Shown piece by piece: positions 12,801 through 15,800 of a stretch of 64,000 nucleotides of DNA. This DNA comes from Octopus vulgaris (taxonomy: Eukaryota), in contig OX597815.1 of NCBI GenBank assembly GCA_951406725.2, forward strand, positions 85,312,001-85,376,000, written 5' to 3'. The stretch's first letter is position 1, and each line of letters opens with the position of its first letter. The translations under genes and the position numbers were made by a program. Below the pieces are notes generated by a model, which was not told the origin of the DNA, did no database searches, and worked only from the letters and a program-made list of their open reading frames with translations.

Positions 12801-15800
12801 TTTTCACATATTTCGGTGTGGTTATACTTCCAGTACATGTACAATCAAGTTTACATGTCAGGAATATCTATTTCAAAAATTACTTTTACTCCAACTTCCT
12901 TCAATGCAGTGAATTCTGTTTCCAACACTGACATTTTATATCTCACTTCTTGAAAAAAGTTAATACTGGATATTATTTTTATTTCCTTTTTGCATGCTGT
13001 GAAATCAAGTCTATTTTTCTTTCTTATCTCTTCCATTATAAAATGTAATTATCAGAAAAATTACTTTATTCATGAGATTCTAGATATGGTTTTAAATTTT
13101 CCTTAATGCTTTTCAAGCAATAACAAAATTTAGAAAAATAACCTTTGATAACAGCTTCTACCGTTTAATTTCTGGGCCCTATTAAATTCAGTGATTTACT
13201 TATAAAGTTAAAATAAATAGGCTTTAAAATCTTTCCTCTCTAAATTTTGGTCAAGCCATTCCCCAATCCTGAAGTCAACTGTTGGGGGCATTTAAGATTT
13301 CTTAAGCAATATGGGCTGTTCTAAATATTTCCAGGTAATAAGAAATTGTTGATCTAATTGCACCATTGCAAGGGATCAACATTGACACCTGCACACTTTT
13401 ACAAACTGTTCTGTTTCTGAAAGTATTAATTTCCCTTCCATGTCTTGAAATTAATTTTTTTTTTTTAATTAAAAATTTTCCTGTCAATATATTCCTGTTC
13501 TGTTTGATTGGTCATATACCTGAAACTGTTCTCTTCTTTCATTTACAACATTTCTTTTTTCATCTCTTTTATCTCTTTCTTAATGTCTAAAGTGGATTTT
13601 TTTTTTTAAATTGCTCAAGTATTTTTTTTATTTAAAAATTTGCATGATTGGGTTATATATACATTGGTTATTTGGGTTTGAATTGTCAAAGATTGCATTT
13701 ATTTCTATTCTTATTTTAATTTTACTCTTATAAAGTAGAGCATTGTTTGGATTTATTCATTGTTTAATTTTATTGAAATAAAGCATCTATTCTATTTTGG
13801 TTATCAGGTTTAATTTTCCTTATATAGGTTGCATATTTGAGTAAAATATTTGAAGTATTACTCAAACTATTATGTGGATTATGCAAAAAGAGAAGACGCA
13901 GAAAGAGAAGACACCGCTATGTACCTTGTTAAAAATTATTGATGAATTAATGTTTATCTTGTTCGTTCTCTTTAAAATTAACATTTTTTAAAATATTTTA
14001 TTGATCTTTTCACCAATGTTATTTGACAGAACCTGTACAATTAAAACTATGAACTCCACTGTTTTCTAGATTTGTATTATTCCATATTTCAATTTGTCAT
14101 CATTAATATGACAAATTGTTACTGGTATATCTTAAGTTCCTGATATATTTCCACATGTACTGGACATGGCAGTTTTGTGGCATTCATTAACTGGAAACTT
14201 GTGATGTTTCAAAAGATCTGCTTTCTGTTTTTTTTTCTTTCTTTTTTGGTTTAGAGCAGGGGTTCTTGGCCATTTTTTACCTATGGACCCCTTTGATTCC
14301 TATTATACTTGGGTGTGCCCCCATAGCCATTCAATATTTAAAAACTTCTATTGTATTTTTATATTTAAATGTTATTAAGAATTGTATAAAAATTGTTAAA
14401 ATATTTTGTGTATTGTACAACTAATTTATTGCACATAAAGTTTACTAGTCTGAAACAATTTCTTCATGGCCCTTGAAAAATTACCTTACCCCCACCCCCA
14501 ATTTAGTATATTGTGTCCATGGACCCTTAAAAAATTTTATATGGATCCCGGTTGAGAGCCCTTGATCAAGAGGAAGGGATATACTTATGACCACTGCAGG
14601 CCCTTCGAGAACAATAGGATTGGAAACAGTGAAAAGATTAAACCATAAAAGATTAAATCTTAATGTTTTCTTAATTTTATTTCTGATGAATTTGTTGTTG
14701 TTTTTGGATTCAAAAAATATATAGAAAATTTTCTTTGACCCCTGTGTTTGAAACCTACCACAACTCTGAGTTTTCATTAGATTCGCTGCCATACCTTTTT
14801 TCTATATGATTAGCAATGTTTCTTAAGTTTTAGAAGGATAAATAATTCAACTAAGTATTGAAAGCGACCTCATAAATTTTGTATGCTGGGAGCTTACCTC
14901 TTGTTGTGTGGCATTCACAACACTTAAGTTTATAAAATTTGTTTTTTAATATTCTTTAGAAATAATATCTATCTCATAATTGAGATATTATTAGTTAAAT
15001 TATTACAGCTTGGAAAATAAATAGGAAATGGACATAAAATTAAAATTGCAACAAAATATTCACTTTTCTATATTTGAAACTTTTAATTGAGAAAATTAAT
15101 TAAAAAATTTTTCTGGAAATATATTCTAGAAAATATATTTCTAGAGCCTTTAGTTTCGATAAATTTGTTTATAATGAAGTCTGTTTTAGTCAGCTTCTTC
15201 TAGAAATCTTCAATGGCATAATTTCACCATTGGAAGTTTTACAATAATTGCAATTAAAAACAACTTGTTTAAGAGTAATCTCTATCTTGATTGTGGCCTT
15301 AAACAAAAGGAAATACTTTGATTTGACTACATTTAGATTAGTGGAGAGTACTTCTCTCATCTACATTGTATTTCTTTCTAGCTAGAAGTTACATTAGCAA
15401 ATGTCTTTCAAAAATCGAAAATATCTTACTGAGTTGCATGTGTCTAACTTTGTTTTGCCGTGGACAGTGAGAAGTTAAAACTTTAGTATCTATTACCCAA
15501 TTTGCATATTGTTGCAGAATTTTTACATTTATCATTGCTTGTCCTATGTCATTGGTAGCATGTCATACTTTGAGTACAATTATACAGTTTGATAATTGTA
15601 TAAATATCTACAGAAATGCAGATATTTATACTTCACACTTAGCTCTTCAATCTATTACAAATTACCACAAAATAGTTTTTTAAAGAATTTTATACACCCA
15701 ACACAGGCTTAATCAATTTATGCTTTGAAAATTTTCTTTATCAAAGTTGTTTGTGTTCAGTTGGCAATGTAATTCGTTTTTGAAGTTGCTGTTGGTTTAT

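Follow-up and report, generated by a model that had tools for sequence, protein, structure and literature searches.

A candidate alternative last exon encoding a predicted palmitoyl-polybasic tail in a myoferlin gene of Octopus vulgaris

The window, that is the whole stretch of 64,000 nucleotides analysed here (Octopus vulgaris contig OX597815.1, positions 85,312,001 to 85,376,000), carries the 3' half of a myoferlin-like gene on the plus strand. Splicing of the protein P0128 onto the window plus 200 kb of upstream sequence resolved 52 introns, from which the splice matrices were derived, and the mapped exons agree nearly residue for residue with the proteins of Octopus vulgaris and O. sinensis. 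The host gene has the layout of a type I ferlin, with a C2 array, FerI, FerA, FerB, DysF and a C-terminal transmembrane helix (Pfam on P0128, the DysF-type match lying under the cut-off), and its best PDB matches are dysferlin and myoferlin. The transmembrane helix is encoded by an exon at 39065–39212 (+). Two alternative last exons are already used by the gene, at 42292 and 48377; they specify differing short tails after the transmembrane helix and are reminiscent of otoferlin exons 47 and 48. The introns also hold transposase-like frames at 16982–17974 (-), 8914–9757 (+), 26476–26907 (+) and 36118–37154 (+), which by their appearance we take to be Mariner/Tc1 and piggyBac; the first of these is a stop-free frame of 330 aa, and the RNA-run contigs for it come from other copies. 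Exon-like frames of a neighbouring minus-strand gene, presumably Nop16-like, lie at 55705–56282 (-).

The intron considered here spans 5286–18880 (+) between two constitutive exons, both phase 0. The upstream exon (5209–5285, +), placed by the P0128 splice mapping, ends in a phase-0 donor (AAG/gtaaaa), while the next exon (18881–18994, +) contains the IDWWSKY motif and encodes an ordered part of the C2E anchor loop. In primate myoferlin numbering the flanking exons border residues about 1397–1452, and the C2E "anchor loop" is given as residues 1395–1498, between strands 6 and 7, in PMC12264198. As judged from sequence, the intron falls inside this loop.

Two cassettes are annotated within the intron. 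Cassette A (7285–7359, +) specifies 25 basic, amphipathic residues and is present or absent among Octopus isoforms; cassette B (12598–12696, +) specifies 33 residues, includes an SFPQxxLP motif kept across molluscs, and is also optional. All four combinations of the two were seen among the 15 Octopus cluster members listed, of 40. With a profile from five other molluscs, cassette B was recovered at rank 1 of 2917 (E 3e-4). Chiton, gastropods, bivalves and octopus all keep the SFPQxxLP-type motif on an exon whose use is optional, and a nemertean has a motif resembling it. At the same point of the gene, other molluscs have optional inserts of basic or amphipathic character: Physella (P0058) possesses a 36–37 aa cassette, hydrophobic then Arg-rich, whose first residue is Val as in the candidate described below, and the cassette of Gigantopelta (P0268) terminates in RRKRR. 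The data show the C2E loop to be an invertebrate-wide hotspot for such inserts. In pulmonate snail myoferlins (P0058, P0034, P0036) an optional hydrophobic-then-polybasic insert stands directly before the IDWWSKY exon. Two further frames were noted in the octopus intron. One is a 15-nt phase-0 microexon candidate (VGLIY; window 18548–18562; acceptor 7.3, donor 8.2 bits) shortly before the 18881 exon; it is missing from the 15 Octopus isoforms listed and may be due to chance, since 195 kb of introns contain 11 pairs of this kind. The other is an 84-nt phase-0 open frame (window 12280–12363) with a strong donor (8.1) and a weak acceptor (2.4), present in none of the 15 isoforms listed.

The candidate segment, 13828–13920 (+), encodes a 31-residue peptide with Cys at positions 16 and 19 and 10 Lys/Arg in 11 residues; retranslation confirmed the translation, the paired Cys and the roughly ten basic residues given in an earlier note on this DNA. 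Its frame matches the phase-0 donors upstream. The acceptor region (13808–13827, +), which comprises a branch-like A at -15, a pyrimidine tract and TAG, scores 9.9 bits against a gene median of 9.3, and only 55 of 10705 intronic AGs are as good (top 0.5%). The site thus has the properties of a functional 3' splice site; a competing AG 20 nt upstream (13806–13807, +), which would give Val-stop, is slightly stronger (10.4 bits), and the zone free of AG measures only 18 nt, as short as that of just 3 of the 52 real acceptors.

The earlier note had ended the segment at 13920 on a donor, TAT/gtacct (13921–13926, +), that it called weak. Weak it is: at -2.5 bits it falls under all 52 real donors of the gene (lowest 0.9), and of 10706 GTs picked at random from introns, 70% do at least as well. 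None of the 52 real donors lacks both -1G and +5G, and all 19 without -1G have +5G. The frame, moreover, runs past 13920 through V-P-C to a TAA at 13930–13932, the stop lying 9 nt beyond the supposed donor, so that the 3' boundary could not be upheld. Since the donor is poorer than every real one, the 93-nt internal cassette is unsupported, and with it goes the proposal of a second internal anchor on a tail-anchored ferlin, which depends on that implausible donor.

The candidate is therefore described here as a putative last exon, the predicted coding part of which (13828–13932, +) consists of 34 codons plus TAA and is single copy in the genome search. A last exon is the simplest structure because a good acceptor, in phase with the upstream donors, is combined with a frame open to a nearby stop and no usable donor before it. 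The nearest good donor (CTG/gtatat, 14125–14130, +; 6.7 bits) would create a 297-nt stop-containing exon. The first ATTAAA past the stop, at 14040–14045 (+) with U-rich sequence after it, is a possible poly(A) signal, and the first AATAAA is at 15016; against an intronic background of 1.2–1.4 per kb the former is a weak signal, ATTAAA itself occurring 1.2 times per kb in these introns. Several other structures were tried and set aside. A recursive splice site would rebuild a donor of only -2.4 to -3.4 bits, a U12 donor was rejected by eye against the consensus, and a microexon of 27 nt with its end at 13854 (2.8 bits), though possible, leaves the remainder unexplained. The eight TGCATG motifs in 13.6 kb of the intron, compared with 0.35 per kb, are unconvincing.

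Residues 1–20 of the peptide (13828–13887, +), including Cys16 (13873–75) and Cys19 (13882–84), are predicted to form an amphipathic helix that is hydrophobic over a broad face and polar along a narrow stripe. The earlier description of a "hydrophobic helix" holds as to the helix and fails as to simple hydrophobicity, K6, E9 and K13 all lying on one face. These residues also rule out a transmembrane segment, for which about 20 uncharged residues would be needed. A single-sequence AlphaFold model gave a helix over residues 2–30 with a mean pLDDT of 80. The polybasic run (13885–13917, +; 10 K/R of 11) is purine-rich and, as read from the sequence, incorporates an imperfect tandem duplication of 15 nt; its codons therefore cannot be counted as independent of one another. 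The unusual purine and CpG composition that had been remarked upon was borne out: among 192482 windows of 33 nt in the introns, 299 equal the tract, and CpG occurs twice versus about 0.6 expected, both within CGC Arg codons.

Cysteines beside hydrophobic and basic residues make up the layout of a palmitoyl-polybasic anchor, and in the peptide Cys16 and Cys19 stand at the end of the helix, adjoining the ten basic residues. Prenylation motifs have a Cys fourth from the end or paired terminal Cys; a prenylated tail (CaaX, CC, CXC) was ruled out, the candidate ending in Y-V-P-C-stop. A linker Cys beside a strong polybasic run was found in none of 15 ferlins with at least 7 K/R in 11 (from 276 fetched). 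The opinion that ferlins have no such insert thus stands, among the ferlins fetched, for this combination and fails for basic or amphipathic cassettes, which occur at the same site across molluscs. In the Argonauta ortholog P0008 a long Lys/Arg run occupies residues about 178–200, in the C2A-C2B linker, and a polybasic stretch is accordingly not unique to the candidate. The peptide nonetheless resembles a palmitoyl-plus-polybasic membrane anchor beyond what controls produce, which supports the earlier note on the layout of this exon-like unit; acylation and localisation are predictions.

How readily such a unit arises by accident was gauged within and outside the locus. The candidate is the only one of 186 acceptor-led intronic frames of at least 30 aa to have at least 8 K/R in 11. 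Of 248 acceptor-led frames in the introns, it has the highest amphipathic moment (shuffle p 0.0002–0.00045), and translation of 264 kb in six frames gave no second Arg-rich window of its kind. As a control, 60 stretches of 10 kb were taken from other parts of the genome, amounting to 1.2 million strand-bases and 1057 frames: three frames were polybasic, none was as amphipathic and none was both. The 13 Arg-rich windows in these stretches proved to be microsatellite-like repeats. The basic run alone proves little because the feature was chosen after the fact for it; what still stands once it is discounted for this reason and for the 15-nt duplication is the pattern of the helix, together with the acceptor, the phase, the strand and the location. 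On its sequence characters the peptide is unlikely to be a product of chance, and present or past use as coding sequence is probable.

In assembled contigs of four presumed-RNA runs, the main contig, to judge from its loose ends, joins the 5209–5285 exon straight to 18881 at a depth of 150–877. The candidate segment was present in two of the four runs, in unspliced contigs only, at depths of 5.7 (X6) and 2 (X9) that resemble the rest of the intron. No spliced joint at the candidate was found among the joints listed for the contigs of these four runs, a weak test because annotated cassette B was likewise unseen in spliced form and because the contig set is incomplete, contigs known to hold the segment's sequence words, as for X1 and X19, being absent from it. 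Contig X6/18 showed no differences in the 102-nt frame versus four in 438 flanking nt, which is not significant. Four further runs yielded no contig on the segment, only a single unrelated piece of 38 nt; the small shares with two other organisms, 2–4 of 19 sequence words, could not be placed on the segment and are no evidence.

The peptide is absent from the 15 Octopus isoforms listed, of 40 cluster members. Searches of 1.84 billion representative proteins, of shorter proteins (queried with the P0141 linker) and of the ESM Atlas gave no match, nor did Pfam with the candidate peptide or metagenome contigs with a degenerate DNA pattern, and the genome search returned no other copy or paralogous site. 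Neither the run contigs, the representative proteins nor the metagenome contigs offered a sequence of another cephalopod that aligned with the segment. Among the top-ranked literature matches there was no cephalopod myoferlin isoform and no palmitoylated ferlin insert.

That junction, protein record and homolog were all unfound in the searches made is what would be expected of a chance intronic frame, in which an AT-rich stretch with a small purine duplication came by accident to follow an AG and was never spliced. The intron holds 22 acceptor-like sites of at least 7 bits, the annotated ones being only 12598 and 18881, and the duplication beneath the Arg run and the post-hoc selection point the same way. 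Against this, the basic run has little bearing on the amphipathic pattern, the strength of the acceptor, the phase, the strand or the position in the hotspot, and none of the 1057 control frames combines the features; accident is therefore judged an unlikely, if serious, competitor. Alternatively, the segment could be the relic of an in-frame exon, similar to the snail hydrophobic-plus-basic cassette, that was silenced by decay of its donor. Position, layout and initial Val are as in the Physella cassette, the distance to the GT is divisible by three, and acceptor and coding pattern are intact. The last point cuts both ways, as a dead exon is expected to lose frame and acceptor too, and homology to the pulmonate snail cassettes was not significant, the candidate ranking 96, 771 and 1131 of 2917 frames against the three snail cassettes and falling outside the best 12 when their profile was used. 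Tests of this type find cassette B but miss cassette A, and their power is therefore limited: against cassette A the candidate ranked 753 of 2917, and with an A-type profile it ranked 10 (E 7.7), real cassette A being at 917. Since there is no significant similarity, the likeness to mollusc cassettes is one of layout only. A relic is judged improbable.

The two readings that keep an internal exon fare less well. A poison exon at 13828–14124, whose stop well upstream of the junction would provoke nonsense-mediated decay and so tune the level of myoferlin, would have a good donor at 14124 and would explain the absence from annotations and contigs; a donor of that quality has, however, about a 32% chance of occurring per 300 nt, and the ordered peptide would be left unexplained, making this distinctly improbable. 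A live 93-nt cassette, which would give full-length myoferlin a second anchor in the manner of STREX, would be in frame, would lie in the hotspot intron and would have analogues in the mollusc inserts, as well as a precedent in BK STREX (PMC3256903). It founders on the donor, which lacks the +5G carried by every real donor without -1G, and no joint from the segment to 18881 was found in contigs of the four runs. Very weak alternative donors are under-sampled, the matrix resting on 52 mostly constitutive introns; even so, the live cassette is the least probable of the structures named, and explanations outside those considered here are given very little weight.

The most likely of the readings considered, held tentatively, is that the candidate serves octopus myoferlin as an alternative last exon, used only rarely; its predicted splicing would produce a palmitoylated, polybasic amphipathic tail in the place of C2F, C2G and the transmembrane anchor. 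In favour of this last exon are the existing alternation between last exons in the gene, the location in a splicing hotspot for basic and amphipathic inserts, and the fact that calpain splits vertebrate ferlins in this region (PMC4230592). Against it stand the stronger upstream acceptor, the short AG-free zone and a poly(A) signal that is non-canonical and common, together with the failure to find the spliced form in contigs, listed isoforms or protein searches. A stop at this point would also remove strands 7–8 and leave C2E incomplete, on the strand assignment of PMC12264198.

Under the last-exon reading, a donor at 5285, 7359 or 12696 would be spliced onto 13828, and cleavage and polyadenylation would follow downstream, perhaps after the ATTAAA at 14040. 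The predicted short form would have 1396 + 34 = 1430 residues, 613 being lost. Its amphipathic helix would rest on the membrane surface, Cys16, Cys19 and perhaps the terminal Cys could be acylated, and the Arg/Lys run would bind acidic plasma-membrane lipids or, when the tail is unacylated, might act as a nuclear signal. By analogy, what remains of myoferlin would be a C2A-C2D core on a reversible anchor, lacking the synaptotagmin-like module of C2F, C2G and the transmembrane helix. Such a product would equal the N-terminal piece freed by calpain from vertebrate ferlins, yet would be made by splicing and reversibly kept at the membrane.

Dysferlin exon 40a would appear to lie in the same loop as the candidate, and its intron we take to be the exact equivalent of the candidate's; the otoferlin RXR insert presumably belongs to this loop as well. 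The choice of last exon in otoferlin retains the transmembrane tail, and isoforms made by intronic polyadenylation usually lose membrane anchoring. Exon 40a introduces a calpain site between the domains known under their old names as C2DE and C2E (PMC4230592). In calpain-cut ferlins, as would be the case at the octopus locus, splicing there decides whether the last two C2 domains and the transmembrane helix separate (PMC4230592, PMC8650162); exon 40a, however, is an internal cassette that adds a protease site, and in those accounts it is the C-terminal module that was studied, whereas the candidate would end the protein and re-anchor the N-terminal part. BK STREX is an alternative exon in a flexible linker in which palmitoylated Cys beside a polybasic run governs membrane versus nuclear targeting; unlike the candidate, in which the basic residues follow the CxxC and the exon is apparently terminal, it is an internal, vertebrate-conserved cassette with the basic residues before the Cys pair (PMC3256903). 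R7BP carries a C-terminal polybasic and double-Cys motif where its relative R9AP has a transmembrane segment, and shuttles between plasma membrane and nucleus, but this involves two genes rather than two last exons, the order of the motif is reversed, and what is experimental there is predicted in octopus (PMC2171691). In both STREX and R7BP the layout of Cys beside basic residues supports palmitoylation and binding to the plasma membrane, and disruption of the motif led to nuclear relocation (PMC3256903, PMC2171691).

Otoferlin has an optional 20-aa Arg-containing (RXR) insert that alters the plasma-membrane abundance of a mutant, and alternative last exons (47/48) that change its tail; the insert differs from the candidate in arising from an alternative acceptor, in being internal and in having no Cys anchor (PMC7768390). 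The linker cassettes of Physella (P0058), Biomphalaria (P0036), Gigantopelta (P0268) and Octopus (cassette A) share the insertion point and the basic amphipathic character, but are internal, in frame and mostly Cys-free. As in intronic polyadenylation that removes transmembrane domains (PMC5928244), an early last exon would shorten the coding region; the octopus form, by contrast, would regain an anchor. Acylated polybasic anchors and truncations by early last exons are thus known in kind, a ferlin example not being found in the top-ranked literature matches.

A wider proposal, and a more doubtful one, is that octopus toggles myoferlin by choice of last exon: one form would be the tail-anchored fusion protein, the other a core free of the transmembrane helix and reversibly held by lipid. 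This would be an RNA-encoded counterpart of the vertebrate calpain split and would permit shuttling between plasma membrane and nucleus. If the junction does not exist, the candidate becomes an instructive near-miss. The hotspot in the loop suggests tissue-specific tuning of membrane targeting. The short isoform, if real, would be a ready construct for testing the N-terminal ferlin core, and a natural isoform that ended at the calpain-split point and brought a reversible anchor of its own would suggest independent action of the ferlin core on membranes.
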